The notes under the pieces are model-generated. The model was not told where the DNA came from and did not search any database. It was given only the letters and a program-made list of their open reading frames with translations. Made by a program: the position numbers and the translations under genes. 64,000 nucleotides of DNA from Clostridiales bacterium (lineage in GTDB: Bacteria; Bacillota; Dehalobacteriia; UBA7702), in NCBI GenBank assembly GCA_040766505.1, contig JAXGQJ010000007.1, positions 21,232 to 85,231 of the forward strand. Reading direction: 5' to 3'. Each line of letters starts with the position of its first letter. The stretch's first letter is position 1. Shown here one piece after another: positions 16,176 through 42,590 of this stretch.

Positions 16176-16748
16176 ATGGAAGACATCAATTTGACAACCA
16201 GCCTAACCAAAGCGAAAGCGCTGCGCAAAACCATCAAAAGGGAGCACGGCGCCGATATCGGCCGCTGCTACCAGTGCGGCAAATGTACGGCTGGCTGTCC
16301 CCTGGCCTGGGCGATGGACCATTCGCCGCGGGAGATCATCAATCTTCTGAGGTCGGGACTGTATGAGGAGGCGGTCAACAGCAAGTCGATCTGGATCTGT
16401 TCCACTTGCGACACTTGCTCGACCCGCTGCCCAAGGGAGGTATATCCCTCGCGGGTGATGGAAGGGCTCCGCATGGAGGCGAAACGCCAGGGGATCATCG
16501 GCGAAAAACCGCTGGACGTGTTTCACACCGCCTTTTTGCAGATCGTGGAACGCTATGGCCGCATCCATGAGCTGGAGCTGATGCTGCGCTACAATCTCTT
16601 TACCGGCAAACTGCTGAAAGACGCGCTCTATGCGCCGGTGATGCTCAGCAAAGGGAAACTGGCGATCCTGCCCCACAGAATTACGGCCCGAGACGAGATG
16701 AAGCAGATCTTCGCCCGCTGCCGGGAGCTAGGAGGTAAACAGCAATGA
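16176..16748 (+). CDS. hdrC: heterodisulfide reductase subunit C
   Basis: Two ferredoxin motifs, CYQCGKCTAGCP and CSTCDTCSTRCP. Its stop overlaps the next gene's start. Confidence 0.85.
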   Translation: MEDINLTTSLTKAKALRKTIKREHGADIGRCYQCGKCTAGCPLAWAMDHSPREIINLLRSGLYEEAVNSKSIWICSTCDTCSTRCPREVYPSRVMEGLRMEAKRQGIIGEKPLDVFHTAFLQIVERYGRIHELELMLRYNLFTGKLLKDALYAPVMLSKGKLAILPHRITARDEMKQIFARCRELGGKQQ

Positions 16749-17650
16749 AGAAATTCGGTTACTATCCCGGCTGCTCTCTTTCGGGTACCGGCCTGGAAAT
16801 GGACATTTCCACCCGGGCCGTCGCGAAGAAGCTGGGAGTCGAATTGTGGGAAGTTCCCGATTGGAACTGTTGCGGCGCCTCGTCGGCCCACTTGACCGAT
16901 CACAACCTGGCTTTGGCTTTGCCCGTCCGCAATCTCGCCATCGCCGAGGAAGCCGGGGTTGGCCTCGCCATTCCCTGCGCCGCCTGCTTCGTGCGGTGTA
17001 AAGCCTCGGAAAAAGCGGTGCGCGAATCGGCGGAGGTAAAGGAACGGATGGCGTATATCACCGGCCGCAGCTATGAGGGAAAGTTCGACGCCAAGAATAT
17101 GCTGGAGATCATCGACGAGGAAGTGGGGATCGACGGCATCAAGGAACAAGTGGTTCGCCCTTTAGAGGGGTTAAAGGCCGTCAGCTATTATGGCTGCCTA
17201 TTGGTGCGCCCGCCGGAGATCACCCAGTTCGACGATGAGGAGGACCCCCAGTCGATGGACAATATCGTCCAGGCCATCGGCGCTGAGGCCGTAAACTGGA
17301 ACTTTAAGGTGGAATGTTGCGGCGCCGCCCATCCCACGGCATTGCCCAAGGCGGGGCTGAAGATGACCGAGGTCATCTTGGACGACGCGAAAAAGCACAA
17401 TGCCGAATGCATCGTCTGCGCCTGCCCCCTTTGCGCCACCAATCTCGATATGCGGCAGGTACAGATCGGCAATGGCCGGAACGTCAAATACGATCTGCCG
17501 GTGTTTTATTTCACCGAGCTTTTGGGGCTGGCCCTCGGCCTGGACGCCAAAACCGTCGGCCTGAAGCACCATTTTGTCGATCCGCTGCCGCTGCTGGAAA
17601 AGAAGGGGCTTTTGAAAGAGCCGCTGAAAAAGGGGGTAGATGAGGCATGA
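16745..17650 (+). CDS. hdrB: heterodisulfide reductase subunit B (two CCG domains)
   Basis: CCG motifs at PDWNCCGASSAH and KVECCGAAHP. 301 aa. Confidence 0.85.
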   Translation: MKKFGYYPGCSLSGTGLEMDISTRAVAKKLGVELWEVPDWNCCGASSAHLTDHNLALALPVRNLAIAEEAGVGLAIPCAACFVRCKASEKAVRESAEVKERMAYITGRSYEGKFDAKNMLEIIDEEVGIDGIKEQVVRPLEGLKAVSYYGCLLVRPPEITQFDDEEDPQSMDNIVQAIGAEAVNWNFKVECCGAAHPTALPKAGLKMTEVILDDAKKHNAECIVCACPLCATNLDMRQVQIGNGRNVKYDLPVFYFTELLGLALGLDAKTVGLKHHFVDPLPLLEKKGLLKEPLKKGVDEA

Positions 17651-19632
17651 AGAGAACCGGCGTTTTCATTTGCCATTGCGGCACCAATATCTCCCAAACC
17701 GTAGACTGCGGCGGCGTCGCCGAGGCGGCGAAGGATTTGCCCGGCGTGGCCTATAGCACCGACTATAAATATATGTGTTCCGATCCGGGGCAGAACATGA
17801 TCATCGACGCCATCAAAGAGCACAATCTCGACCGCATCGTCGTCGCCTCCTGTTCCCCCCGTATGCACGAGCCAACCTTTAGAAAATGCATCGCCAAGGC
17901 GGGGCTGAACCCCTATATGGTGGAAATGGCCAATATCCGGGAACATTGCTCTTGGGTTCATTCGGATAAGGCCAAGGCGACGGCGAAAGCCACCGACCTT
18001 GTCCGCATGGCCACCGCCAAAGCGATGAAGAATGTGCCGCTGCAAAAATCGACGATTTCCATCCACAAGCGGGCCCTCGTCATCGGCGGCGGCATCGCCG
18101 GCATCCAGGCGGCCCTCGACATTGCCGACGCCGGCTATACCGTGGATCTGTTGGAACGGGAAGCCTCCATCGGCGGGAAGATGGCCCAGATCGACAAAAC
18201 CTTCCCCACCATGGACTGTTCCGCCTGTATCCTGACGCCGAAAATGGTCGACGCCTCCCAGCACCCGAACATCAATATCATCGCCTACAGCGAAGTGGAA
18301 AAGGTGGACGGCTATGTCGGCAATTTTGATGTGACGATCAAACGGAAGGCCACTTCCGTCGACCCGGTCAAATGCACCGGCTGCGGCGCTTGCTACAACA
18401 AATGCCCGAATAAGAAAAAGATTCCCAGCGAGTTCGAATGCGGCATGACGACGAGAACCGCGATCTATGTGCCGTTCCCCCAGGCGGTGCCGAATAAGCC
18501 CGTGATCGACCGGGAACATTGCACCTATTTTACAAAGGGCAAATGCAAAATTTGTTCCACCGTCTGCCCCACCGGGGCCATCAATTATGAAGATCAGGAC
18601 GAATTTGTGACGATCCGCTACGGCGCCATCGTCGTCGCCACCGGCTTTGATCTCTTCGACCATTCGGTTTACGGGGAATATGGCTATGGCAAATACCCCG
18701 ACGTGATCACCGGTTTGCAGTTCGAGCGTCTCGTCAATGCCTCCGGCCCCACCATGGGCCATATCCAGCGCCCCTCCGACGGGGAAGAGCCGAAAAATGT
18801 TGTTTTCATCAAATGCGTCGGCTCCCGGGATGAGAAAAAGGGCAAAAAATACTGTTCGAAGGCCTGCTGCATGTATACGGCGAAGCACGCCACCATGGTA
18901 AGGGATAAGATCAAGGATTCCAATGCCGTCATTTTCTATATGGACGTGCGCACCGCCGGCAAGGGCTATGAGGAATTTTATCTGCGGGCCAATGACGAAT
19001 ATGGCGTCGACTATGTCCGGGGCCGCGTTTCCCGTATCTATCAGGAAGGGAAGAAGCTGATCGTCAAAGGGGAGGACACATTGATGGACAAGGCCGTCAC
19101 CGTCGAAGCCGATCTGGTGGTGCTGGCCACCGCCATGGTGCCCCAGGCCGACGCCGGAGATTTGGCGCGGAAGGTCGGTTTCTCCTATGACCAGGACAAT
19201 TTCTTTACCGAAGCCCACCCCAAACTCCGCCCGGTGGATACCTTCACCGCCGGCGTATTTTTGGCCGGGGCCTGCCAGGGGCCTAAGGACATTCCCGATT
19301 CGGTTTCCCAGGCCGGGGCCGCCGCCTCCAAGGTGATCGGCCTGCTTTCCAAAGACGAGATGGACACCGAGGCCATCGTCGCCGCCGTCGATACGGATCG
19401 TTGTTCCGGCTGCGGCTTCTGCGTCAATGTCTGCCCCTACCATGCGCTGGAATTGGTGGATCTGACGGAACGCTGCGGCTGTAACAATGTGACCCGCCAG
19501 GTGGTTCAGGTAAACCGGGGCCTCTGCCAAGGCTGCGGCGCTTGCACCGTCAATTGCCGTTCCAATGCTTTGGATCTGATGGGCTATACCAATGAACAAA
19601 TCTTAGCGGAGGTGGATGCCTTATGTCTGTAA
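17647..19632 (+). CDS. hdrA: heterodisulfide reductase subunit A (FAD, multiple 4Fe-4S)
   Basis: 661 aa. VIGGGIAGIQAALDIADAG dinucleotide fold, CTGCGACYNKCP, CKICSTVCP, CSGCGFCVNVCP, CQGCGACTVNC. Confidence 0.9.
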   Translation: MKRTGVFICHCGTNISQTVDCGGVAEAAKDLPGVAYSTDYKYMCSDPGQNMIIDAIKEHNLDRIVVASCSPRMHEPTFRKCIAKAGLNPYMVEMANIREHCSWVHSDKAKATAKATDLVRMATAKAMKNVPLQKSTISIHKRALVIGGGIAGIQAALDIADAGYTVDLLEREASIGGKMAQIDKTFPTMDCSACILTPKMVDASQHPNINIIAYSEVEKVDGYVGNFDVTIKRKATSVDPVKCTGCGACYNKCPNKKKIPSEFECGMTTRTAIYVPFPQAVPNKPVIDREHCTYFTKGKCKICSTVCPTGAINYEDQDEFVTIRYGAIVVATGFDLFDHSVYGEYGYGKYPDVITGLQFERLVNASGPTMGHIQRPSDGEEPKNVVFIKCVGSRDEKKGKKYCSKACCMYTAKHATMVRDKIKDSNAVIFYMDVRTAGKGYEEFYLRANDEYGVDYVRGRVSRIYQEGKKLIVKGEDTLMDKAVTVEADLVVLATAMVPQADAGDLARKVGFSYDQDNFFTEAHPKLRPVDTFTAGVFLAGACQGPKDIPDSVSQAGAAASKVIGLLSKDEMDTEAIVAAVDTDRCSGCGFCVNVCPYHALELVDLTERCGCNNVTRQVVQVNRGLCQGCGACTVNCRSNALDLMGYTNEQILAEVDALCL

Positions 19633-20084
19633 GCGAAGAAGTCAAAACCACAACGGCGACAGAAGAGGAATGGCAGCCTAAAATCCTCGTATTCGCTTGC
19701 CAATACTGCACCTATGCCGGGGCGGATTTGGCGGGTTTAAGCCGCCTCCAGTACCCTCCCACCACCCGGGTTTTGCGGGTGCCCTGTTCCGGCCGGACGA
19801 ACCCCCAATTTGTCATCCGCGCCTTTCAAAAAGGGATCGACGGCGTGCTGGTGGCCGGCTGCCATCCCGGCGATTGCCACTTTTCCACCGGCAACTATTT
19901 CGCCCGCCGCCGCTATCTCTTGATGAAGCGGATGATGGATTTCATCGGCATCGATTCCCGCCGCTTCCATGTGCGCTGGATTTCCGGTTCCGAAGGGCCG
20001 AAATTCCAGCAGGTGGTCACCGAAATCACCGCAGAGATCAAGGCTTTGGGGCCAAACAGAAAGTGGAGGGATGAAGATGCGTGA
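19623..20084 (+). CDS. mvhD: MvhD/FlxD-type methyl-viologen-reducing hydrogenase delta-subunit-like protein
   Basis: ILVFACQYCTYAGADLAG...LRVPCSGR...LVAGCHPGDCHF matches the MvhD pattern. Confidence 0.85.
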   Translation: MSVSEEVKTTTATEEEWQPKILVFACQYCTYAGADLAGLSRLQYPPTTRVLRVPCSGRTNPQFVIRAFQKGIDGVLVAGCHPGDCHFSTGNYFARRRYLLMKRMMDFIGIDSRRFHVRWISGSEGPKFQQVVTEITAEIKALGPNRKWRDEDA

Positions 20085-20958
20085 TATCAGCCAAGACATG
20101 CGGGCCATCGCCAAAAAGCTGCTGGCCGACGGTACCGTCGGCCTCGTGCTCGGCTGGGAAAAGGGCAATCTGTGGTATAAGAGCGCCCCGGCCTTCATCT
20201 CCGATCCGGAAGATACGGGCCGCCTGGTCTTTGACGATTTCTGCTACCATAATTTAAGCAAATACCTGCTGGATCACCGGGATAGGGAGGGAAAGATCGC
20301 CGTTTTCGCCAAAGGCTGTGACAGCCGTTCCCTCGTCGGCATGATCCAGGACAATCAGATCGCCAGGGAAAAGCTGTACATCGTCGGCATTCCCTGTCCC
20401 GGCCTGAAAGAGGAGAAGGCCGCCGTCGGCAAAAAGCCCGGCGCGGAACTGCCGGAGGCGAAAAAATGCGCCCTCTGTCTCTTCCCCAATCCGGTGGTCT
20501 ATGATGAATTGATCGGCGAGGCCGTGCCGGAGCGGGAAGGAAAGCGGGATCTGATTTTGGAACAGGTGGAAGCCATGTCCCAAGACGAGAAATATGCCTT
20601 CTGGCAGGAACAGTTTTCCGCCTGCATCCGCTGTTTCGCTTGCCGCAATGTTTGCCCCGTCTGCTCCTGCCGGGAATGCTGCTTCGATTCCACGCCCCCC
20701 CAATGGCTGGGGAAAGCGGAAAATCCGGTGGAGAATTCCTTCTATCACCTCACCCGGGCCCTGCACATGGCGGGACGCTGTGTGGGCTGCGGTGAATGTG
20801 AGCGGGTCTGCCCGATGGGCCTGCCGGTGATGTTGTTGAACCGCAAGCTCAGCCAGGATTTAGAGGCGCTCTTTAAGGAATCGCCCGCCGGTACGGTGCT
20901 GGAGGATACCCCCGCCATGAACCATTTCCGGCTCGACGATCCGGAAGAATTTATGTGA
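20071..20958 (+). CDS. 4Fe-4S dicluster protein (FlxC-like)
   Basis: CIRCFACRNVCPVCSC and CVGCGECERVCP motifs. Start overlaps the mvhD stop. Confidence 0.7.
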   Translation: MKMRDISQDMRAIAKKLLADGTVGLVLGWEKGNLWYKSAPAFISDPEDTGRLVFDDFCYHNLSKYLLDHRDREGKIAVFAKGCDSRSLVGMIQDNQIAREKLYIVGIPCPGLKEEKAAVGKKPGAELPEAKKCALCLFPNPVVYDELIGEAVPEREGKRDLILEQVEAMSQDEKYAFWQEQFSACIRCFACRNVCPVCSCRECCFDSTPPQWLGKAENPVENSFYHLTRALHMAGRCVGCGECERVCPMGLPVMLLNRKLSQDLEALFKESPAGTVLEDTPAMNHFRLDDPEEFM

Positions 20959-20970
20959 GGAGGCGGCAGG

Positions 20971-21973
20971 ATGAAAGGGATTAAAAAAGATCAACTCAAT
21001 GGGCTGTTAAAAGCCATGTCCGGCGATTACCAAGTGTTCGTCCCCGCCAAAACCTCCGATGAAGTGACGAAGTTCGCTCCTTATCAGGACGGTATTGCAA
21101 TGTTTTGGCAGGAAAACACCTTTGCTTTCGCCAAAAGACATCTTCTTCCCCCAAACGGAAAAGATGTACCGTTTTAAAGCCAAAGGTTCTAAGGTAGACA
21201 TTGAAACTCTGCCGCCGGCGGATGGCCCTAAAATTCTCTTCGGCATCCGCTCCTGCGATGCCCAAAGCATCGACTGTATGGATAAGGTCTTTTTGACCCG
21301 GGGCTATGAAGACGGTTTTTATAAAGCCAGGAGGGAAAACGCCCTGCTTTTCGCTTTGGCCTGTACCAGCCATGCCGATACCTGCTTCTGCACCTCGATG
21401 GGGGTGGATCCGCAACAGGCCCCCCTCGCCGATGTACAGATGAGCGATGTGGGCGACGCCTATGCGCTGGAAGCCAAAACCCCCGCCGGAGAGGCGGCGC
21501 TGCAAAAGTACCAAAGCCATTTAACGGAATTGTCGAACCCGAAAATGCTGCCGCTGGATGAAATCCTGATCCATGTGGATATGGACGGCGTTTCCGAAAA
21601 GCTGGAAACGATGTTCGAACATCCGATCTGGGATGAGGTTTCTCCGAAATGCATCGGCTGCAGCACCTGCACCTATGTATGCCCCACTTGCTATTGCTTC
21701 GATATCGACAATCAGCTCCGGGGAGAAGAGGGGGCGAAAATCCGCTGTTGGGATTGCTGCATGTTTTCGGAATACAGCCGCATGGCCGGCGGGCACAATC
21801 CCCGCCCTTCGAAAAAGGAACGGGTGCGCAACCGCTTTATGGACAAATTGCTTTACAATAAGAAACGCCATGGCCAGATCTTCTGCGTCGGCTGCGGCCG
21901 CTGCGTGGCCAAATGCCCGGTCAATCTTGAGATTGCCACCATCATCCAAAAAGTAAAGGAGGCGGCAAACTAA
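20971..21973 (+). CDS. AsrA/FlxB-like 4Fe-4S subunit (one frameshift near 21100-21125)
   Basis: N-terminal piece 20971-21177 joins ORF 21095-21973 (...LLSPKDIFFPQTEKMYRF...CIGCSTCTYVCPTCYCF...CVGCGRCVAKCP). Confidence 0.7.
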
Positions 21974-22807
21974 ATGACGGCCGAAGAAATTAAAAAGATC
22001 AATGCCCTCGTACCCATCAAAGGGAAAATCATCAAAATCAACCAGGAAACCTCGGACACCAAGACCTATACCATCACCGCCGAAGACGGCACGAAGCCCT
22101 TTGCCCCCAAGCCCGGTCAGTTGGGGATGCTCTCCATCCCCCAGATCGGCGAGGCGATGTTCTCCATCACCCACCAGGGGGAAAACACCATCGATATGGC
22201 GATCAAAAGCGTCGGCGCGCTGACCAATGCCCTCTTCGAAGTTGAGGAAGGCCAGGAATGCGGCATCCGCGGCCCCTATGGCAACGGCTTCCCGCTGGAC
22301 AAATGCAAAGGCCGGGACATCCTTTTCATCGCCGGCGGCATCGGCCTCGCGCCGGTGCGCAGCCTGATCATGCACTGCATCGAAAACCGGGCCGATTATG
22401 GCAAGCTGACGGTGGTCTACGGCGCCCGCTCCTATGGGGATCTGGTTTTTAAAGACGATATTCTGGAAAACTGGCCCAAAGTGGAAAATATGGACGTTTT
22501 CGTTACCATCGACCGGGGCGAAGAATGCTGGAAGCAGCATGTCGGCTTCGTTCCCGCCTATGTGGAGGAGCTGAATCCGGCGCCGACGCTGACCTTCGTC
22601 TGCGGCCCGCCGATCATGATCAAATTTACCCTCCAGTCGCTGATGAAGATGGGGTATGACGAGGACGAAGTCATCACCACGATGGAAATGCGCATGAAAT
22701 GCGGGATCGGCAAATGCGGCCGCTGCAATATCGGCAGTTGCTTCGTCTGCCTCGACGGCCCGGTCTTTACGATGCGGGAAATGAACGCGCTGCCCCCGGA
22801 ATATTAA
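21974..22807 (+). CDS. AsrB/FlxA-like FAD/NAD(P)-binding oxidoreductase with a C-terminal 2Fe-2S
   Basis: 277 aa. FNR-like fold (LFIAGGIGLAPVRSL) and CGIGKCGRCNIGSCFVCLDGP. Confidence 0.75.
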   Translation: MTAEEIKKINALVPIKGKIIKINQETSDTKTYTITAEDGTKPFAPKPGQLGMLSIPQIGEAMFSITHQGENTIDMAIKSVGALTNALFEVEEGQECGIRGPYGNGFPLDKCKGRDILFIAGGIGLAPVRSLIMHCIENRADYGKLTVVYGARSYGDLVFKDDILENWPKVENMDVFVTIDRGEECWKQHVGFVPAYVEELNPAPTLTFVCGPPIMIKFTLQSLMKMGYDEDEVITTMEMRMKCGIGKCGRCNIGSCFVCLDGPVFTMREMNALPPEY

Positions 22808-30328: not shown

Positions 30329-31273
30329 TTATTCGGCGGCGGTGGCGGCTTCCAATTTTTCCACTTTGGCTTCCGTGGCGGTTTCCGCGGCGGGGGCCGG
30401 TTTCTTTTTCAGCGCCGAATAGAACATCATGATGGAGGTATAGACCAACACGCAAACAACGATCCAGGTCAAAACGTAAAGGGGCAGTTCTTTCACGACA
30501 TAAACGGCGAGGATGACGCCGATGGTGCCGGCGATTTGGCCGACGAGATTGGCTTTAAGATCCAGCGCGCCTTCTTTCAAAAAGCGGAACCCGGCGGCGG
30601 GCATCAGGAAGGTATAACCGCCGAACATGATCGGAAATGCCGCCCGGGGGCTCATCCCCATGGCATAGCAGACCGCCATCATCGGCGCATAACAGCCGAT
30701 GCCGGCGGCGGCCAGCATACCGAAGATAAAGAAGATTATGGTGCTGGCGATCAGACGCCACCCGGCGAGGCCGATGGCTTCACCGCCGGCGGGCCAAACG
30801 CCGATTTGGCGCAATACCATCGTTGTGGCGACGATCAGAAGGCCGGTGCCGAGAATGATCTGAATCGGCTTTTCCGGAAAATGGGAAACATATTTCGCGC
30901 CGATGGCGGCGCCGGCGGCCACCGCCGCGATCAAACAAATGAGGGTGATCGGATCCACCTTCACGATGGTGACGAAAAGCAGCGTCTCCACGGTGCTGGG
31001 GATCAGCGTGCAGGTGTTTAGGGTGCCGGGGATCAATTTGTCCGGCACAAGCCGGAAGAGTTTAAAGAGCGCGGTCTGCGGCGCATTGCCGCCGATGCCC
31101 AAAGCATCGAAAAACATCGTGCCGCCGATGACGGCCCCCAACCCCGCGGTGCTGGCATTGGATATCTTATCCCGGTTTTTCTTTGCATAGCGGACGAGGG
31201 CGGTGCCGTATAATGTGGCGCAAAGAATCGCGCCGACTTGGATCATGCGAATGAGGATGGTGCCCATAATCAA
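30329..31273 (-). CDS. TauE/SafE (DUF81) family anion permease
   Basis: 314-aa polytopic ORF with the duplicated glycine-rich DUF81 pattern (GLGAVIGGTMFFDALGIGGNAPQTALF and IFGMLAAAGIGCYAPMMAV). It starts 34 nt after the mttB stop. Confidence 0.65.
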   Translation of the reverse strand: MIMGTILIRMIQVGAILCATLYGTALVRYAKKNRDKISNASTAGLGAVIGGTMFFDALGIGGNAPQTALFKLFRLVPDKLIPGTLNTCTLIPSTVETLLFVTIVKVDPITLICLIAAVAAGAAIGAKYVSHFPEKPIQIILGTGLLIVATTMVLRQIGVWPAGGEAIGLAGWRLIASTIIFFIFGMLAAAGIGCYAPMMAVCYAMGMSPRAAFPIMFGGYTFLMPAAGFRFLKEGALDLKANLVGQIAGTIGVILAVYVVKELPLYVLTWIVVCVLVYTSIMMFYSALKKKPAPAAETATEAKVEKLEAATAAE

Positions 31274-31307: not shown

Positions 31308-32779
31308 TTACCGGGCGGCGTATTCTTCCTCCGCCTCGGCGATGATGTCGCTTAGGCCTTGTGCCGCCCCGTCGGGCAAAGCGGGCACCCGGTGGGTGGC
31401 CAAGATATGTTCCGCTTCCGCATAGGCCCGTTCCGCCAAATCCTTCGACCCTTCCATCACCCACGCTTCCCGCATCGAGCGGTCGAAGAGCTTCGTGGCA
31501 CTCTGTTCATGGCGGAACCGCTGGAAGGTGTGGGGATGGCTGATCAGTTCACCGCCGGGGCCGATCTCCTTGATCAGTTCAACGGCGATATTTTCATCGC
31601 TGATCTTGATGCCGTCCATCACCCGGCGGATCATCGTATAGATTTCATTGTCGATTACGAATTGGGCCAGGTCGAAAGTGATGCCAAGGTCCAACATGCC
31701 GGCGCCGTAGATCAAATTGGCGCCGCCCTGGGCCGCCAATAATGCCGTCAATGTTTTCTCGTGGGCCGCCTGTCCGTCGGGAACTTTGCTGTCCGCCTAG
31801 CCCCCCGCCACAAAGCTCGGCAGTTTGTAGAATTGGGCCAGCCTTGCCACCGAGGCGCTGATCATGCCGAGTTCCGGCGCGCCGACGGGGGCCGTCGTAT
31901 AGCGCATGTCCATAATCGTCGTCGAGCTGGCATAAATACAGGGGGCGCCTTTTTGCGTCAGTTGGCTTAAAACGATCACGCTCAGCACTTCCGCATTGTG
32001 GGTGGCGAGGGTTCCCGCCAAAGTCACCGGCGAGGTGGCCCCGGCCATCGCCATCGAGATGATATTGATCGGCACATTTTCCTTGGCCGCCAGCATCACA
32101 ACGTCGGTGCATTCGGGGATCAACTTTAACAGGCTGGTGGGGCAGACATTGAAGCTGATCAGCGGCCGCTGCCGCAGCGCTTCTTGGCCGCCGGCCACCA
32201 GGGCCGCCATACGGATCAGTTTTTTGGCATTGTCGATGCCGTCGGCGCCGATAAAGAAGTGTTTTGTCGTATTGGGGAAAATGGCCTCGGCATTGTGGAG
32301 GGCCTGGGCGGGGCCGGGGCAATCTTGGGATACCACCGCCCGATAGGTGATGTCCATATTGGGCAAATAATCGCTCATCCGGCTGCATTGGGCCAAATCC
32401 GCCTTGGTGCTGGGACGGTACTCTTTCGTTTTCATATCCCGCATCATGACGCCTTCGCCGAAATTGACGAAGCCAATCCTGTTTTTTTCCAGAACATAGT
32501 CCTTTTCCGGCAGCCGCCCCGACAGCCGCAAGGTGGGGGGTGCTGTACGAATGGCCTCTTCTACCATGTAGGGCGGCATTTTTACGATTTTGCTTTTCTC
32601 GTCGACGCTGGCGCCGCCGGCGGCGAAAACCTCTCTCGCTTCCGGGCTGTCGACCCGCACGCCGATATTGTGCAAAATATCCAGCGTCGCAACGTGGATG
32701 GTCTCCAGTTCATCCTGGGAATAGCCGACGATGCCAAAGCTGCCGAGCCCCGGAAAACTGCCTGTGTGTTCCTGGTCAT
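31308..32779 (-). CDS. mttB: trimethylamine:corrinoid methyltransferase family protein MttB with one in-frame UAG (putative pyrrolysine); 1-nt frameshift near the 5' end
   Basis: ORFs 31797-33050 and 31308-31751 share one frame and are joined by a single TAG. Translation: ...YSQDELETIHVATLDILHNIGVRV...[47 protein letters not shown]... The ATG at 32779 follows AAGGAGG but lies in the +1 frame relative to the body. Confidence 0.8.
31797..31799 (-). other. in-frame amber codon (candidate pyrrolysine site)
   Basis: Plus-strand CTA equals minus-strand TAG. It is flanked by conserved MttB sequence in the same frame on both sides. Confidence 0.7.
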
Positions 32780-32831
32780 TCTGATCTTGCCTCCTTAATC
32801 GATGTATGGAATACTCCTGCCCCTTTCTATA

Positions 32832-32847
32832 GCAAATTCCGTGCCAT
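32832..32847 (-). promoter_or_regulatory. sigma-54 (-24/-12) promoter of the Pyl-mttB operon
   Basis: The minus strand reads TGGCAC-GGAAT-TTGCT, an exact TGGCAC-N5-TTGCW match, about 53 nt upstream of the ATG. Confidence 0.8.
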
Positions 32848-33030
32848 TTGGCGCGGCGGTTTGAAAAAGAAAACGCAAAGGCGAAAAAAACGGCGTGTTC
32901 CCGCCGTTTTTCACGTAAAAGATCCGGGCCACCGGCTTTTTTCTTTGCCGATGGCCCGCCAGTTTTTTGTTTGCCCGCCTTTTGCCGCGGATCGGATGCA
33001 AAATAGGGGAAGAACGCCTTCGGCTTCCCG

Positions 33031-33060
33031 CCCTTCATGCATTTTTGCATGAACGAATGC
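33031..33060. promoter_or_regulatory. candidate enhancer (UAS) for the sigma-54 activator
   Basis: CCCTTCATGCAT-ttt-TGCATG-aa-CGAATGC, about 190 nt upstream of the -24/-12 element. The same motif occurs at 36829-36872. Confidence 0.55.
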
Positions 33061-33070
33061 CGTTGGCCCT

Positions 33071-34845
33071 CTATTTCGATTTGTTTAAAATGCGGATCAC
33101 GGTGCTTTGGTTGACCCCCAAAGCCTCGGCGGCCCGGTAGGAATTGCCGTATTGCTGGTAGGCATTTTTAACGAGGAGGGCTTCCAATTCCGCTTTGGCG
33201 GCCTTTAAGGGCAGCAGCGCCGTGCAGATTACCTGGCCCCGGGGGTCATATTCTCGGAAAAGATTTCATTGAACTGGTCGATGGTGATCAAATCCCCGTC
33301 GCTGGCGACGATCAGCCGTTCAACGGAATTCATCAGCTCCCGCACATTGCCGGGCCAGGAATAATTTAGGAAAAAGCGAACCACTTCGGCGCTGAAACGT
33401 TTTTTCGTCTGGTGCCGGTGGTTAAAGCTCTTAATGAATTGGTTTGTCAGCGGGACAATGTCCTCCCGCCGGTTCATGAGGGGCATCAGCGCAATGGGCA
33501 TAACTTTCAACCGGTAATACAGGTCATTGCGGAAGCTCCCTTCCTCTACCATCGCTTTCAGATCCCGGTTGGTGGCGGCGACGATCCGCACATCCAGCGG
33601 AATGCGTTTCGTGCCGCCGACCCGGACGATTTCCCGATCCTGCATGAATTCCAGCAGCTTCACCTGGAGGGCCAGATCCATTTCGCCGATCTCGTCAAAG
33701 AAAACGGTGCCGCCATTGGCGGTTTCCAATTTGCCGATTTTGCCCTTTTTGGCGGCGCCGGTGAAGGCCCCGGCTTCATAGCCGAACAGCTCCGATTCCA
33801 GCAAATCCTTGGGGATGAGGCCGCAATTGATCTTGACGAAGGGCTTGGCGTTTCGCTTGCTTAAACGGTAAACCAGATCGGCGACCACTTCTTTGCCGGT
33901 GCCGGATTCCCCTCGATGAGAACGGAAACATCGGTGGGGGCGATCTTGGCGACGAGGCTTTGCACCTGCTTCATCGGGGGCTTTCAAAATATAGCCTTCC
34001 TGCTGGATGATATGTTGTTGCAGGGCCTTGATCTCCTCTTTGCTGGAATTCAGTTCCCGCGAGATTTTATCCACCTGGGAATTGATGCCGGCGATGTCCT
34101 TGGAGGTGCTCAAAACGTGGATCATATTGCCCGCCCCGTCAAAAATCGGTTGGGCGGTGGCGAGGATATGGCAGCCGGAGGAAAGCTCCACGATTTCCGC
34201 CACCTTATCGCCGGTGCGCAAAACCTCCAGGGTGACGCTTTTCGACACGACGGCGTCCTTTTCGAAATCGCTGACATGGCGGCCCACATAGTCTTCCAGC
34301 CGGATGCGGCAAAGGCTTTCGCCCCGGGGATTGGTGTATTGGATGAAGCCCTGGCCGTCGGTGATGAAAACATCGTCCTCCATCGCGTCGAAAATGCGTT
34401 TGTAGAATGCGATCTGTTTTTCCATCTGCCAGGTCAGCCGCTCTTTTTCCAAGAGCATGTCCTTATAGAGGTCTATCTGCTCCAATATGCCGATGATCTC
34501 GCCGTCGTCCTTTAAAACCAGCGCCAATTTGGGGGTGGTTTTTAATTGCGGCGGTAAGAAATGGGTTTCGGCGGCGCCGACGCTTTCCTCCCGGATTTGG
34601 GCGGCAAAATCCCCCCTCAGGGTCAGATGGGGCAGGGGCAGCAGCGCCGGGTCGTCGACGGCGACGGCGTCCCCTTTCTCCGCCGCCAGTAGCCCCAGGC
34701 AAAGCTGGGCCGTGCCGAACAATTTATAGGGCGCGTCGCCGCAAACGACATAGTCCGCCCCGCTTTGGCTAAGTTCCCGGGGGGTCAGAACGGCATCGGC
34801 GGCGCGCAGGATAAAATTGCGGTTGATATAGCGATGGAGGTTCAT
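33071..34845 (-). CDS. sigma-54-dependent transcriptional activator (PAS-AAA+-Fis HTH); frameshifts near 33235 and 33900-33960
   Basis: Walker A GESGTGKE, ESELFGYEAGAFTGA (GAFTGA loop), RIVAATNRDL, WPGNVRELMN. C-terminal HTH ...YGNSYRAAEALGVNQSTVIRILNKSK stop (TAG 33071-33073). Confidence 0.85.
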
Positions 34846-34901
34846 CTTTTTCTCCTTTCCGGGGTTCGCCCCCGGCCCGGCCGGGGTGGCGGAAGGGCAC
34901 C

Positions 34902-34954
34902 AAAACCCCAGAACCCGTCGGTGCGAAACCGTGCCGAGGGGTCTGGGGTTTTTT
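34902..34954. terminator. bidirectional rho-independent terminator after the non-Pyl mttB homolog
   Basis: CCCCAGAACCCGTCGGTGCG-aaa-CCGTGCCGAGGGGTCTGGGG, flanked by AAAA upstream and TTTTTT downstream. Confidence 0.65.
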
Positions 34955-34988
34955 ATGCGGGCAACATGCTGTGTTTGCCATGGCCACC

Positions 34989-35036
34989 GGCTTTCATGCC
35001 GCGGCTTTTGGGCGGAAGCGCCGCGGCATGAAAGCC
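34989..35036. other. 17-bp perfect hairpin
   Basis: GGCTTTCATGCCGCGGC - 14-nt loop - GCCGCGGCATGAAAGCC. Confidence 0.6.
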
Positions 35037-35101
35037 GTAAAGAACCGCCGCGCCTCGCGGGAACCGCTCCGGTTTTTAGCGGCGGTTGACCGGCCCGGGG
35101 T

Positions 35102-36513
35102 TTATTTCCCTTGGATGGCGGCCTGCAAGGCTTCTTCCACCGCCTGGTCCGCCTCGGGAGACAGCGCCAGGTTCACATGGTTCTTGTGGAGGTCTTTCGC
35201 TTTTTCCAGGGCGCGCTGGCCATAGGTCGTCTTATGTTGTCTCCAGCCGTCATGGTTGTTGCGTTCGCAGAGGATGGGATTCCACAGTTCGCTGCGAAGA
35301 TGCTGCAAGGTGTGCATGTGGCCGAGGAAGTTCCGCTCCCCGTTGACGACTTCATGGGTCACGTCGACGGCCAAGGTGTCCTCATTGACCACATTGCCCT
35401 GGATGATTCTCTTGATCATAGAGGAAATTTCATTGTCCATAACGATGGTGGGATAGTCGGCGATCAGGGCATTGTCGGTGGAACCGCCGGTGCCGAGGAT
35501 GTCGGCGCCTACCATGGCGGGAACGAGGGCGTTCATCATCCGCTCAAAGCCGCTCTGCTCGTCCAATACCTTCGAGGAACCGGAGAAGCCCGTCGGTTCG
35601 CTGGGAACGCCATAATAGGCCGCCAGCTGGGCGGAGCAGGTGCCGGCCAAGCCCATTTCCGGTGCGGTCCAAAGGCCGACGGCGGTGCGCATATCGATGG
35701 AGGTCACCCGGGGGGAGAAGATCGTGGGATGTCCCGGCTTCATCAACTGGGCGATCACAAGGCCCGCCAGCATTTCCGCATTGTGCATCGTAACGGAACC
35801 GATCAGCGTCATCGGGCCGGTAGCCCCCAGCATCGGGCAGGGGATGATGCCCAGCGGCAAATTGGCTTCCACGGTGTCCAACAGGCCGTTGGCGGGGCCT
35901 TCGGCATAATCCAATGGGCTGATGGGGGAAACCTGCAAATAGGCGATGGGCTTTTTCACGAGATTGTCCATGCCGCCGACGGCTGCCGCCAGCACTTGGG
36001 GGATATATTTCATTTCATGGTCGGATTCAATGCAGATGTGCAGAGGCTTGGCGGTGTTCCGCACCATCGCGACGGTTTCCGCGGTCACCGCGGCATGTTC
36101 CGGAATGTCTTTGGGGAAGATGGCGGAAATGATGTCGATATAATCCAGCCCATCACAAACCCGGATAAAATCGCACAGGTCTTTATAGCGGACGAGGCGC
36201 CGTTCACCGGTTTCAAGGTCATTGATAAAGGGGAACCGATGCAGGTTTGGGCAAAGACCTTGCCTTCGCCGAAGGTCACATTGCGGCTTTCGTCGCGGCC
36301 ATAGAGGGTGAAGGAACGGGGCGCTGTTTTGATCGCCTTTTCCACCAGATCCCGGGGGAAATAGACGGTGCCGTCCTGAACGGTCAGTCCCAATGCGGCG
36401 CATTTTTTCAAGAAGCGATCCGATTGACTGCGAACGCCGGTCTTTTCCAGAATTTTCAGCGTCGCTTCATGGATCATTTCCACATCTTGTTTGCTGAGAT
36501 ACGAAAAGTTCAT
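35102..36513 (-). CDS. MttB-superfamily methyltransferase without an internal stop (non-Pyl type); one frameshift near 36240
   Basis: MNFSYLSKQDVEMIHEATLKILEKTGVRS...TAPRSFTLYGRDESRNVTFGEGKVF joins ...INDLETGERRLVRYKDL...GFSGSSKVLDEQSGFERMMNAL...; RBS GGAGG. Confidence 0.8.
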
Positions 36514-36567
36514 GATAAGCCTCCCTATACTTTTATTTAAATTTTTGGTATTCTGGTCATATATAAA

Positions 36568-36583
36568 AGCAAGAACCATGCCA
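36568..36583 (-). promoter_or_regulatory. sigma-54 (-24/-12) promoter of the non-Pyl mttB homolog
   Basis: The minus strand reads TGGCAT-GGTTC-TTGCT, about 55 nt upstream of the ATG. Confidence 0.75.
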
Positions 36584-36828
36584 ACCGTGAAACACCCTGT
36601 CAAGTTTTCAGAAAATTCCCGAAAAAGGGGAGGCGGGGGCCTGTAAAGCCCGCAACATTCCGGCGGAGCGTCGCCTTCGCCCCGGGCTGCGGGGCCGCGC
36701 TATAAAATCGCCCCAAGCAGGGGATACGGGCCGGAACGGCGCCCAAAACGTGCTGCGGCGGCAAAGCCTTTAGCTGCCCTTGGCGCAAAAAAGCGATAAA
36801 AATTCACCCCGGAACAAGATTCCCCCGG

Positions 36829-36872
36829 CCCTTCATGCATAGATGCATGGGGCGAATGCATTTGTGCATTCT
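36829..36872. promoter_or_regulatory. candidate enhancer (UAS), second copy
   Basis: CCCTTCATGCAT-aga-TGCATG-ggg-CGAATGCATTTGTGCATTC, about 250 nt upstream of the -24/-12 element. Confidence 0.55.
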
Positions 36873-39284: not shown

Positions 39285-39314
39285 AGTAACCTGATAATGG
39301 AAGGAGTGTTTGGA

Positions 39315-39836
39315 ATGAATATCTTAATCAAAGGAAGAAACATCGATGTAACCCCGGCTTTGCGCGAGTATATCGAAAAGAAATTGTCGCGGTTGGAAAA
39401 ATTCATGGACATCAATGATGTCAATGTCACTTTGGCGGTGGAGAAAAATATGCACCGCATCGAGGTGACGCTCCAGCTGAACGGCTATATTCTCCGGGGC
39501 GAAGAGGTTTCCGGCAATATGTATGGCTCCGTGGATCTGGTTGCTGACAAATTGGAAACGCAGATGGTGCGCTATAAGGAAAAAATCCAAAAACGGAACA
39601 AGCGGAAAAAGGTTTTGGCGGAGGTCGCTTTTGCCGAGGAGGCGCCGGTTCCCGATGATGAGTTGGTGCGGGTCAAACGTTTCCCGATCAAGCCGATGAC
39701 ATTGGAGGAGGCGGTGATGCAGATGAATATGCTGGGCCACAGCTTCTTCGTCTTTACCAACAGCGAAACGGAAATGGTCAATGTGGTCTATACCCGAAAA
39801 GATGGAAAATATGGCCTTTTAGAGCCGGAATATTGA
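39315..39836 (+). CDS. hpf: ribosome hibernation promoting factor (long HPF)
   Basis: MNILIKGRNIDVTPALREYIEKKLSRLEKF... plus the C-terminal dimerisation domain ...VKRFPIKPMTLEEAVMQMNMLGHSFFVFTN. Confidence 0.9.
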   Translation: MNILIKGRNIDVTPALREYIEKKLSRLEKFMDINDVNVTLAVEKNMHRIEVTLQLNGYILRGEEVSGNMYGSVDLVADKLETQMVRYKEKIQKRNKRKKVLAEVAFAEEAPVPDDELVRVKRFPIKPMTLEEAVMQMNMLGHSFFVFTNSETEMVNVVYTRKDGKYGLLEPEY

Positions 39837-39975: not shown

Positions 39976-42590
39976 ATGTTAAAAGCATTCAAAAACCTGT
40001 TTGACGACAATGCGAAGGACATCAAGAAATACGAGAAAAGGGCGGAGGAGGTCAATGGTTGGGAAGCGGAGATCGCCGCCTTGAGCGATGCGGAACTAAA
40101 GGGGAAAACCGCCTATTTTAAAGCGAAGCTGGAGGCGGGGGCCACCCTCGACCATATTTTACCGGAAGCCTTTGCCGTGGTGCGGGAAACGTCGAAACGG
40201 GTGCTCGCCATGCGCCATTTCGATGTGCAGTTGATCGGCGGCATGGTTTTGCACGACGGGCGCATCGCCGAGATGAAAACCGGGGAAGGGAAAACCCTGG
40301 TGGCGACTTTGCCCGCCTATCTGAACGCCCTCACCGGCAAAGGGGTTCACATCGTCACCGTCAACGACTATCTCGCCAAACGGGACAGCGAATGGATGGG
40401 CCGGATCTACCGCTTTCTCGGTCTGGAGGTGGGGCTGAATGTCCACGGCCTCAATCCCGACGAAAAGCTTGCCGCCTACAGCGCCGACATCACCTATGGC
40501 ACCAACAATGAATTCGGCTTCGACTATCTGCGGGACAATATGGCGGTACGCTCCGAAGCCGTCGTGCAGAAGCACCTCTATTATGCGATCATCGACGAAG
40601 TGGACAGCATCCTCATCGACGAAGCGCGGACGCCGCTGATCATCTCCGGCCAGGCGGAAAAGCCGACGGAGCACTACTATACCGTCGCGAAGCTGATCCC
40701 CCGGCTGAAACCGGAGGAAGATTTCAATGTCGACGAGAAGATGAAGGCCGCCACCCTCACGGAAGAGGGGATCAGCAAGATGGAAAAGTATCTCGGCCTA
40801 GAAAATTTGTACGACGATGAGAATACGGAATGGAGTCATCTGGTGTCCCAGGCCTTAAAAGCCAGAACCCTGTTCCGCCGGGATCGGGACTATGTGGTGA
40901 AGGACGGCGAGGTGATCATCGTCGATGAGTTCACCGGCCGCCTGATGTTCGGCCGCCGCTATAGCGATGGGCTTCACCAGGCCCTGGAAGCCAAAGAAGG
41001 GTGAAGATCGAACGGGAAAGCCAGACCCTTGCCACCATTACCTTTCAGAATTATTTCCGCATGTATGAAAAACTGTCGGGAATGACCGGTACCGCCAAAA
41101 CCGAGGAATCGGAATTCACAAAGATCTATCGCGTCGATGTGGTGCAGGTGCCGCCGAACCGGGAGATGGTTCGGGTGGACATGCCCGATGTGATCTACCG
41201 CACGATGAACGGCAAACAGGCCGCCATCGTCGAAGAGATCGTCGCCGCCCATGCCCAGGGCCAACCGGTGCTGGTGGGCACCGTGTCCATCGAAAAATCT
41301 GAGATCCTGAGCCGGGAACTGAAGCGGCGGGGCGTCCGCCACAGCGTGCTGAACGCCAAATTCCATGAGATGGAGGCGCAAATCATCGCCCAGGCCGGGG
41401 CCTTGGCCGCCGTCACCATCGCCACGAATATGGCGGGCCGCGGCACCGACATCCTGCTGGGCGGCAATCCGGAGTTTTTGGCCCGGGATCGGCTGCGCCA
41501 GATCGAGGAAAATGGCCAGGAAGGGGATTATGAGCCCTCCTGGCCGAATACAAAACCAAGTGCGACAGGAGAAGGAAGAAATCGTCGCCGCCGGCGGCCT
41601 CTATGTTCTCGGCACCGAACGCCATGAAAGCCGCCGCATCGACAACCAGCTTAGGGGCCGCAGCGGCCGCCAGGGAGATCCGGGCAAAAGCCGCTTTTTC
41701 CTCCTCGATGGAGGACGATCTGATGCCTTCTTCGGTTCCGCCAATATGGCGGCGGTGATGGACAAATTCGGCATCGACGATACGATGCCCATCGATTCGG
41801 CGATGGTGTCCAAAAGCCTGGAAAATGCCCAGAAAAGGTGGAAAACAACAATTTCGATATGCGGAAGCATGTGCTGGAATATGACGATGTCATGAACAAT
41901 CAGCGGGAGGTGATCTATGGCCAGCGCCGGGAGGTGCTGCTGAAGGAAAACATCCGGGAACAGGTGCTGCGCATCCTGCATAAGGCGATGGATCGGGTTT
42001 TGGAGAATCATACCAATGACAGCCAGCATCCGGAAGAGTGGGATTTGGAAACCATCGCCGAAGAGGCGAGGGTTCTGCTGCCCCACCATACCCATACCGC
42101 CGCGTCCCTGTCTCTGCTTTCGGCCCAGGAGATCGGGGAGCGGCTTCACGCCGATGTCGACGCTGCCTTTGCCGCCCGGGAAGAGGAGCTGGGCCGGGAA
42201 AATATGGAAAACCTCGCCCGTTTCATCATTTTGCGGGTGGTGGACCAGCAATGGATGGACCATCTGGACGCAATGGACCAGCTGCGCCAAGGCATCGGTT
42301 TAAGGGCCTATGGCCAAAAGGATCCGTTGGTGGAATATAAATTTGAAGCCTTTGACATGTTCCAGGAAATGGTTTACAATATCCAACGGGAAGTCTCCCG
42401 CTATGTGATGCGGGTCAATGTGGTGGAACGGCCCAAAGAGGCCAAGATCACCGCGGAAAACCGTTCCGGCGAAGAAGCCCAGGGGAAAAAGCCGGTGCGC
42501 AAGGAGAAAACCGTCGGCCGCAACGATCCCTGTCCCTGTGGCAGCGGCAAAAAATACAAAAAATGTTGCGGTCAGAACAATAAGGGGTGA
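39976..42590 (+). CDS. secA: preprotein translocase ATPase SecA (at least three homopolymer frameshifts)
   Basis: [21 protein letters not shown]...[41 protein letters not shown]...; C-terminal zinc motif [19 protein letters not shown]. The junction at 41000 has GGG where GGGG restores ...EAKEGVKIERE... Confidence 0.95.

Follow-up and report, generated by a model that had tools for sequence, protein, structure and literature searches.

Predicted sigma-54 promoters and upstream palindromes link two mttB-family genes to the activator gene between them in a Clostridiales bacterium

RESULTS

Two mttB-family genes flank the gene of an enhancer-binding protein

We analyzed a 64-kb stretch of contig JAXGQJ010000007.1 from a Clostridiales bacterium (assembly GCA_040766505.1; hereafter the window, to whose positions all coordinates refer unless a comparison locus is named). 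Its minus strand carries two genes of the MttB methyltransferase superfamily, mttB2 and mttB1, with a gene for a predicted sigma-54 activator, or enhancer-binding protein (EBP), between them. In the direction of transcription, two palindromes predicted to be upstream activating sequences (UAS) and a predicted sigma-54 promoter precede mttB2, which is followed by hairpins; then come the activator gene, a third UAS palindrome, a terminator, a second predicted sigma-54 promoter, and mttB1 together with a tauE-like gene. An original prediction, made from the sequence of this stretch, had proposed that matched promoters and a shared upstream motif tie both mttB genes to the intervening activator. 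The layout of two mttB genes, activator, sigma-54 promoters, and palindromes is found again in related uncultured bacteria, and we are therefore almost certain that it is real. For the comparisons below, the activator was scanned against 185,579 species genomes; L-numbers denote the loci compared and P-numbers the homologous proteins.

Both mttB genes match the full-length MTTB profile (PF06253/COG5598), and they fall into different subgroups. The upstream gene, mttB2 (35102–36513, minus strand), encodes ~470 amino acids (aa) after frame repair (PF06253, E=2e-87), and its closest solved structure is the Desulfitobacterium hafniense glycine betaine methyltransferase MtgB (2qne/9yce; E ~1e-67). 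It contains no TAG codon and reads GFSGSSKV at the pyrrolysine (Pyl) position, which places it outside the Pyl-dependent MttB subgroup. The repaired product of mttB1 (31308–32779, minus strand; 490 aa; PF06253, E=4e-100) matches Methanosarcina barkeri MttB (7xcl/7xcm) with E=5e-114, and its in-frame TAG at 31797–31799 aligns with the pyrrolysine position in the segment VAGG-X-ADSKVPD. A PYLIS_3 element, the mttB pyrrolysine insertion element (Rfam RF02510), starts at this TAG and occupies 31700–31799 on the minus strand (score, 81.8 bits; gathering score, 38; E=4e-15). The TAG is kept in four orthologues (L001, L002, L003, and L005). On these three grounds the sequence identifies mttB1 as a genuine Pyl-type trimethylamine (TMA) methyltransferase gene, and the PYLIS_3 element at its TAG implies that the organism decodes UAG as pyrrolysine.

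About 40 nt downstream of mttB1 and probably cotranscribed with it lies a gene for a TauE/SafE-family membrane protein (30329–31273, minus strand; PF01925), which may be a methylamine permease. A tauE-like gene likewise follows Pyl-mttB, or the Pyl-type dimethylamine methyltransferase gene mtbB, at seven comparison loci (L001, L003, L005, L006, L202, L203, and L232). The TauE/SafE protein encoded beside Pyl-type mttB or mtbB may play the part in bacteria that putative methylamine permeases play in methanogens, whose mtt/mtb operons encode them.

The activator gene (33071–34845, minus strand) is the only one in the window and encodes ~591 aa after frame repair. Its product comprises a divergent CBS-pair-like domain (residues 1–122), a PAS domain (~147–251), an AAA+ sigma-54 interaction domain (PF00158, E=3e-68), an AAA lid, and a putative C-terminal helix-turn-helix (HTH); the Walker A motif GESGTGKE and the GAFTGA motif are both present once the frame is repaired. 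The C-terminal segment aligns with homologues bearing PF18024 and holds the conserved recognition helix NQSTVxR, which reads NQSTVIR in the window. The protein had been described as a PAS-AAA+(GAFTGA)-Fis HTH activator; PAS, PF00158, and GAFTGA bear this out, and the HTH falls just below its Pfam cut-off. AlphaFold2 models built with 42 homologues as input (predicted local distance difference test scores of 84 and 79) make the PAS domain visible. A Foldseek search with the full 285-residue sensor half returned PAS matches only. The N-terminal 125 residues gave weak matches, all of them to CBS pairs (best E=1e-3, TM-score ~0.5), so that the CBS-pair likeness is a weak, model-based fold assignment that gives no clue to a ligand. 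A word-indexed search with residues 1–285 alone, a method blind to so divergent a domain, yielded a single match.

Each mttB gene is preceded by an exact -24/-12 element

The predicted sigma-54 promoter of mttB1 is TGGCACGGAATTTGCT (TGGCAC-GGAAT-TTGCT; 32831–32846, minus strand), and that of mttB2 is TGGCATGGTTCTTGCT (TGGCAT-GGTTC-TTGCT; 36568–36583, minus strand). Both are exact consensus matches, fitting TGGCAC-N5-TTGCW with a spacing of exactly ten bases from the GG to the GC dinucleotide. Exact TGGCAY-N5-TTGCW occurs nowhere else in the whole window: two matches against a chance expectation of 0.07, with two or more matches in 1 of 100 shuffles. Allowing one mismatch added four further matches, for a total of six against 4.4 expected, which is the chance level. 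The elements end 51 nt before the mttB1 ATG (at 32779) and 54 nt before the mttB2 ATG (at 36513), and a good ribosome-binding site is present at both start codons. The original prediction had the sequences, consensus fit, and spacing of both elements right; its coordinates were exact for the mttB2 element and one base off for the mttB1 element (32847–32832). We found no -24/-12 element for the activator gene itself.

The activator gene is also set apart from its neighbors by probable terminators. Two strong hairpins after mttB2, the second followed by UUUUGG (34901–35036, minus strand; RNA fold of -81.3 kcal/mol, z=-7.3), are the probable terminator(s) that separate mttB2 from the activator gene. 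Downstream of the mttB1 UAS and ahead of the mttB1 promoter comes an intrinsic terminator with an A-tract, a stem, and U7 (32880–32908, minus strand), at which transcription of the activator gene probably stops; L002, L004, and L005 have an analogous terminator in this position. Since the activator gene lacks a -24/-12 element of its own and is bracketed by these structures, it is probably expressed separately and at a low level.

Palindromes lie upstream of both promoters

The shared ~30-nt motif reported upstream of the two promoters was found again at 33031–33060 and 36829–36870. Its core is a perfect palindrome, CATGCA-N4-TGCATG, of which the window holds exact copies at 33036–33051 and 36834–36849 only. 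Counting to the center of each site from the T of TGGCA, the mttB1 palindrome (CATGCA-AAAA-TGCATG, 33036–33051) lies at ~-197, 20 nt past the activator stop codon, with a degenerate half-site, GCATTCG, beside it at 33054–33060. The proximal mttB2 palindrome (CATGCA-TCTA-TGCATG, 36834–36849) lies at ~-258 and a distal one (AATGCA-CAAA-TGCATT, 36855–36870) at ~-279. All three are predicted UAS. What had been taken for an extra half-site at the second motif copy is this full second palindrome, AATGCA-N4-TGCATT, and the two mttB2 sites stand in tandem, 21 bp from center to center, or two helical turns. For a palindromic dimer site in tandem arrangement, as this motif is, the claim that the copies share an orientation has no meaning.

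The two 450-nt upstream regions together contain three ATGC-N6-GCAT sites, a number that none of 5,000 dinucleotide shuffles reached (mean, 0.034). There are no clustered ATGC-N6-GCAT sites elsewhere in the window.

The arrangement is conserved among related genomes

In the activator scan, full-length matches at ~50% identity turned up at six loci (L001–L005 and L011), each in a metagenome-assembled genome (MAG) of the Peptococcaceae/Clostridiales. The order mttB2-EBP-mttB1-tauE is present in L001–L005 and L202, and L011, whose view ends at the EBP gene, has mttB2-EBP. In all, at least seven other Peptococcaceae/Clostridiales MAGs carry the cassette, L011 among them for the mttB2-EBP part. The orthologous EBPs are ~50% identical to that of the window and the MttB proteins 70–82% identical. 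The orthologous loci lie in a different housekeeping neighborhood (cysS-mrnC-rlmB), and the cassette therefore moves as a unit.

The regulatory elements are kept along with the genes. A -24/-12 element is retained in L001–L005, L011, L202, and L203; in the orthologues TGGCAY-N5-TTGCA stands 38–76 nt before each mttB start, in intergenic DNA that is otherwise unalignable. The same eight loci have tandem pairs equivalent to the mttB2 UAS. Across 167 kb of the orthologous loci we counted 34 ATGC-N6-GCAT palindromes, 29 of them in the 450-nt regions ahead of 13 promoters, where 1,000 shuffles gave 0.19 on average and never more than 3; the sites share the consensus T-[A/C]-ATGCA-WWWW-TGCAT-[T/G]-A. 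Ahead of mttB2, the orthologues have tandem pairs 21–22 bp apart at ~-215/-194 plus a site at ~-94; ahead of mttB1, pairs lie at ~-167/-145, with one to three sites in the EBP-mttB1 spacer. The recognition helix NQSTVxR is common to the orthologous EBPs. Conservation of gene order, -24/-12 elements, and palindromes alongside EBPs that are only ~50% identical is what a link between the promoters, the upstream motif, and the intervening activator would predict, and in this respect the comparison supports the original prediction, whose interpretation holds for the most part.

Searches of protein sequences brought in more examples. P0006 (48% identical, full-length) is encoded in the same four-gene cassette, P0003 (54% identical, full-length) beside a Pyl-mttB, and P0035 (46% identical, full-length) with a Pyl-mtbB, a corrinoid protein gene, and tauE; promoter and sites are laid out alike in all three, and P0035 has the same tandem sites. 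The gene for P0083, from a Dehalobacterium sample (74% query coverage), precedes Pyl-mttB, tauE, a corrinoid protein gene, a pterin-binding methyltransferase gene, and mtbB. At L003, an ATP-binding cassette (ABC) uptake system consisting of substrate-binding protein, permease, and ATPase genes (L003 8085–10972) separates the activator gene from mttB1. Despite this insertion, mttB1 still has the UAS and sigma-54 promoter directly ahead of it, and the transporter could hint at the substrate.

A separate scan with MttB1 gave 27 loci. A strict -24/-12 element was found upstream in 13 of them, all 13 at ≥58% identity; it was absent at those of Ca. Formimonas warabiya, Bengtsoniella, and distant Desulfobacula-type paralogues. 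Because 13 of the 27 loci have the element, predicted sigma-54 control of Pyl-mttB appears common in the clade and not universal.

Paralogous activators and the specificity of the palindrome

The MAG that contains L001 also carries a larger methylamine island (L006 2342–16081) with two paralogous activators. Its units are tauE-mtbB, with the Pyl-type dimethylamine (DMA) methyltransferase gene; an mttB2-like gene; and tauE-mttB1-like with a corrinoid protein gene. Every unit has its own -24/-12 element, but the repeats upstream are of other kinds, such as two copies of TGTGATGAAAT before tauE-mtbB. The paralogue L006b has the recognition helix SQPAIIK, and sigma-54 promoters are present there and ATGC-N6-GCAT palindromes absent. 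Paralogous activators are thus predicted to control dimethylamine methyltransferase operons in the same way.

We scanned public genomes for the tandem pattern ATGCR-N4-YGCAT-N7/8-ATGCR-N4-YGCAT and obtained at least 119 loci, mostly in unrelated taxa, so that the tandem palindrome is insufficiently specific to serve as a regulon-mapping pattern. Among the matches listed, ~14 adjoin genes for PAS-type activators 35–41% identical to the window EBP, next to CN-hydrolase, arginase-family, permease, and 3-hydroxyacyl-CoA dehydrogenase genes. At L008, three ATGC-N6-GCAT palindromes and a sigma-54 promoter before a thiolase gene (L008 11111–11335) accompany a 40%-identical PAS-type activator with an NQSTV helix; LarA and FAD-oxidase genes are found near the thiolase gene. 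ATGC-N6-GCAT is thus the site type of a wider Bacillota clade of PAS activators, and is clearly reused for unrelated catabolic operons.

Two homologues, P0067 of Desulfosporosinus orientis and P0091 of a Sporomusa sp., cover ~76–81% of the query, without the N-terminal module, and neither is encoded beside mttB; an identity of ~45% over PAS, AAA+, and HTH is no sign that they share the regulon. Since homologues without coverage of the N-terminal module lie away from mttB, this module suggests itself as the mark of a methylamine-linked subgroup.

A predicted local regulon and its alternatives

Taken together, the sequence data favor a local sigma-54 regulon in which one activator gene lies between its two target units, mttB2 and mttB1 plus the tauE-like gene, a reading to which we assign a probability of roughly 80%. 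Sigma-54 RNA polymerase would form closed complexes on the two TGGCAY-N5-TTGCT promoters, and activator dimers would bind the phased palindromes ~200–280 bp upstream and assemble into an active AAA+ ring. The ring would reach the polymerase via DNA looping and open the promoters through its GAFTGA loop with ATP hydrolysis. Closed-complex formation, ring assembly, looping, and ATP-driven opening are standard for GAFTGA-containing sigma-54 activators. The N-terminal CBS-like and PAS modules may hold the ATPase off until a signal arrives, and, to judge by the target genes, the likeliest signals are a methylated amine such as TMA, a precursor of the quaternary-amine type, or a metabolite formed from these. 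The sequence elements, the domains, and their conservation between species are shown directly; from them we infer sigma-54 dependence, the identity of the palindrome-binding protein, and looping, and from the target genes the signal.

Several observations weigh against this regulon. The EBP HTH scores 24.1 bits against PF18024 (HTH_50), under the 27-bit Pfam cut-off. The UAS-to-promoter distances in the window (~200–280 bp) exceed those of most orthologues, and the proximal site at ~-94 is missing. Five frameshift corrections were needed to read the three genes. There is no gene for a corrinoid protein (B12-binding) in or beside the cassette, and none was found in the rest of the window, which leaves the pathway of the cassette incomplete, and no rpoN (an open reading frame [ORF] with an RpoN box) in the window or in any comparison locus. 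Nor did we find any tRNA gene, including pylT, or any pyl gene in the window. The regulon had been called self-contained, a term that does not fit a cassette from which the corrinoid protein, pyl, and rpoN genes are all absent. With no tRNA or corrinoid protein gene at the cassette, pylT, pylSBCD, and the MttC gene must lie elsewhere in the genome. Finally, the ATGC-N6-GCAT core is not exclusive to this activator, since relatives that act on unrelated genes use it as well; the assignment of the sites to this protein therefore rests on adjacency and conservation.

This last point bears on the alternative that survives best, improbable as we judge it: the palindromes could be bound by some other regulator, such as a paralogous PAS-type activator encoded elsewhere, a repressor that is not an EBP, or a global regulator, with the adjacent EBP controlling other genes or acting only in part. 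The tandem sites beside the 35–41% identical PAS-type activators, and those beside the thiolase operon of L008, indicate that the core alone does not specify one protein. However, the sites directly adjoin a gene of this activator clade at all of the loci inspected, and they covary with the activator recognition helix. The window, moreover, offers a single activator gene and no second cluster of sites.

We consider it very unlikely that the cassette is instead decaying, with real frameshifts and with promoters and sites that are relics of a dead regulon. Five frame changes in ~4.7 kb of coding sequence would be in keeping with decay, as would the public record, in which the activator ORF, at least, also appears with its frameshifts (P0002, 538 aa). 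Three-frame translation placed one change in mttB2 (36229–36232, a C4 run), one in mttB1 (32750–32762, T4/G4 runs), and three in the activator gene (33975–33985, 33905–33915, and 33228–33245, at C5, G4, and C5/G4 runs). Thus, all five lie in runs of at least four identical bases, and the essential gene secA (39976–42590, plus strand) is also split, into three ORFs. For these two reasons the frameshifts seem to be homopolymer assembly errors and not decay, in a pattern like that of an unpolished long-read assembly, and such systematic indels leave ORF-based annotation of the contig fragmented. The repaired proteins, in addition, align end to end with orthologues and solved structures, and the PYLIS and promoter elements are intact.

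We give hardly any credence to coincidental -24/-12 matches, with sigma-70 promoters in use and the palindromes serving as operators: a weak sigma-70-like match (9/12) lies at 36541–36512, but matches of this kind occur there about as often as chance predicts (4 vs. 3.5 expected), whereas both exact -24/-12 elements, far above expectation in number, are correctly placed, have equivalents in orthologous loci despite divergent flanks, and enclose the gene of a GAFTGA activator.

Genes around the cassette

The cassette has housekeeping neighbors at both ends, namely ilvC and the gene(s) of an ABC exporter at one and comF-like, hpf, secA, and prfB genes at the other. The ribosome hibernation factor gene (39297–39836, plus strand) lies just upstream of secA-prfB, the usual gene order in Bacillota; its Pfam family name, "Sigma 54 modulation protein/S30EA", is no evidence for rpoN. 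At 16176–22807 (plus strand), a heterodisulfide-reductase-like run encodes a 4Fe-4S protein, a CCG-domain protein, a 661-aa FAD/4Fe-4S protein, further ferredoxin-like proteins, and an NAD-binding/DHODB-type subunit, and fits an anaerobe with electron-bifurcating complexes.

DISCUSSION

How anaerobic bacteria switch on pyrrolysine-dependent methylamine methyltransferases has barely been studied, and TMA and its quaternary-amine precursors are relevant to methane from sediments and digesters and to TMA and trimethylamine N-oxide in the gut. The general picture of sigma-54 regulation is unchanged by the locus described here. Together with its relatives, it provides a defined set of orthologous activators, a consensus for their predicted binding sites (TNATGCA-N4-TGCATNA, in tandem at two helical turns), and testable promoter positions, which could be used for predicting methylamine regulons in MAGs or for building a TMA-responsive reporter.

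A bolder proposal, which we put forward tentatively and think somewhat doubtful, is that the CBS-like/PAS activator might be a direct trimethylamine sensor, with paralogues that sense dimethylamine, in a family of methylamine-responsive activators in anaerobic Bacillota. If this were true, one sensor would couple a non-Pyl MttB paralogue, acting as a quaternary-amine demethylase, to the Pyl-type TMA enzyme and its permease, and the supply of TMA precursors and the consumption of TMA would be switched on together.

PAS-type activators encoded beside their targets are familiar from Bacillus, where RocR, AcoR, and BkdR are of this type. In Clostridiales, a 2019 reconstruction of local EBP regulons comprising 39 EBP groups (PMC6615313) described PAS-AAA+-HTH activators beside their targets, with multiple UAS mostly 100–250 bp upstream of TTGGCAT-N5-TTGCT promoters, a layout like that of the window. 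None of the groups in that study is for mttB, the terms mttB, methyltransferase, betaine, and trimethylamine are absent from it, and a limited substring search of its supplement found no ATGCA-N4-TGCAT palindrome in the passages returned. A methylated-amine substrate is shared with the sigma-54-controlled sarcosine utilization system of Bacillus thuringiensis (PMC4941409), whose activator SoxR likewise has an inverted-repeat UAS and two sigma-54 promoters in its own locus. The activator gene is itself independent of sigma-54 in that system, according to the same study, and lacks a -24/-12 element here. The SoxR system differs in that its targets are oxidative sarcosine oxidases and not corrinoid methyltransferases, and in that a single UAS, an 11-bp AT-rich repeat, serves both promoters.

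Closer parallels exist for mttB itself. In Sporomusa sphaeroides KIAC, differential RNA sequencing identified primary start sites with SigL motifs for an mttC-mttB operon and a divergent pyl operon, which adjoin the sigma-54 activator gene KIAC18_001665 and whose expression is hugely condition dependent (PMC12456013, 2025). Betaine activation was described not for the mttC-mttB operon but for a separate, SigL-controlled 58-kb betaine/TMA cluster, which has SigL promoters and sigma-54 regulators (PMC12456013). Like the window, S. sphaeroides KIAC thus has a sigma-54 activator gene beside a trimethylamine-methyltransferase-family gene, as well as Pyl-associated methylamine genes. Unlike in the window, the order there is corrinoid protein gene-mttB with divergent pyl genes and no non-Pyl mttB on the other side; S. 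sphaeroides is a Negativicute, neither a binding site of the activator nor a consensus was reported for it, and the one Sporomusa homologue of our activator that we inspected (P0091) is not encoded beside mttB. A comparative survey placed MttB (COG5598) among the sigma-54-regulated groups in Clostridia (PMC12316311, 2025), in agreement with the promoters predicted here; it used a promoter matrix only, does not extend to the activator, UAS, or cassette, and labels MttB a cofactor-biosynthesis enzyme. Because these two 2025 studies link sigma-54 to mttB, the general arrangement is already described, and the original view that it was undescribed for mttB genes is out of date. What the present locus adds to the known systems is the activator orthologue group with the consensus and geometry of its binding sites and, as predicted from sequence, the joint control of the Pyl enzyme, the permease, and a non-Pyl paralogue, along with paralogous DMA modules.

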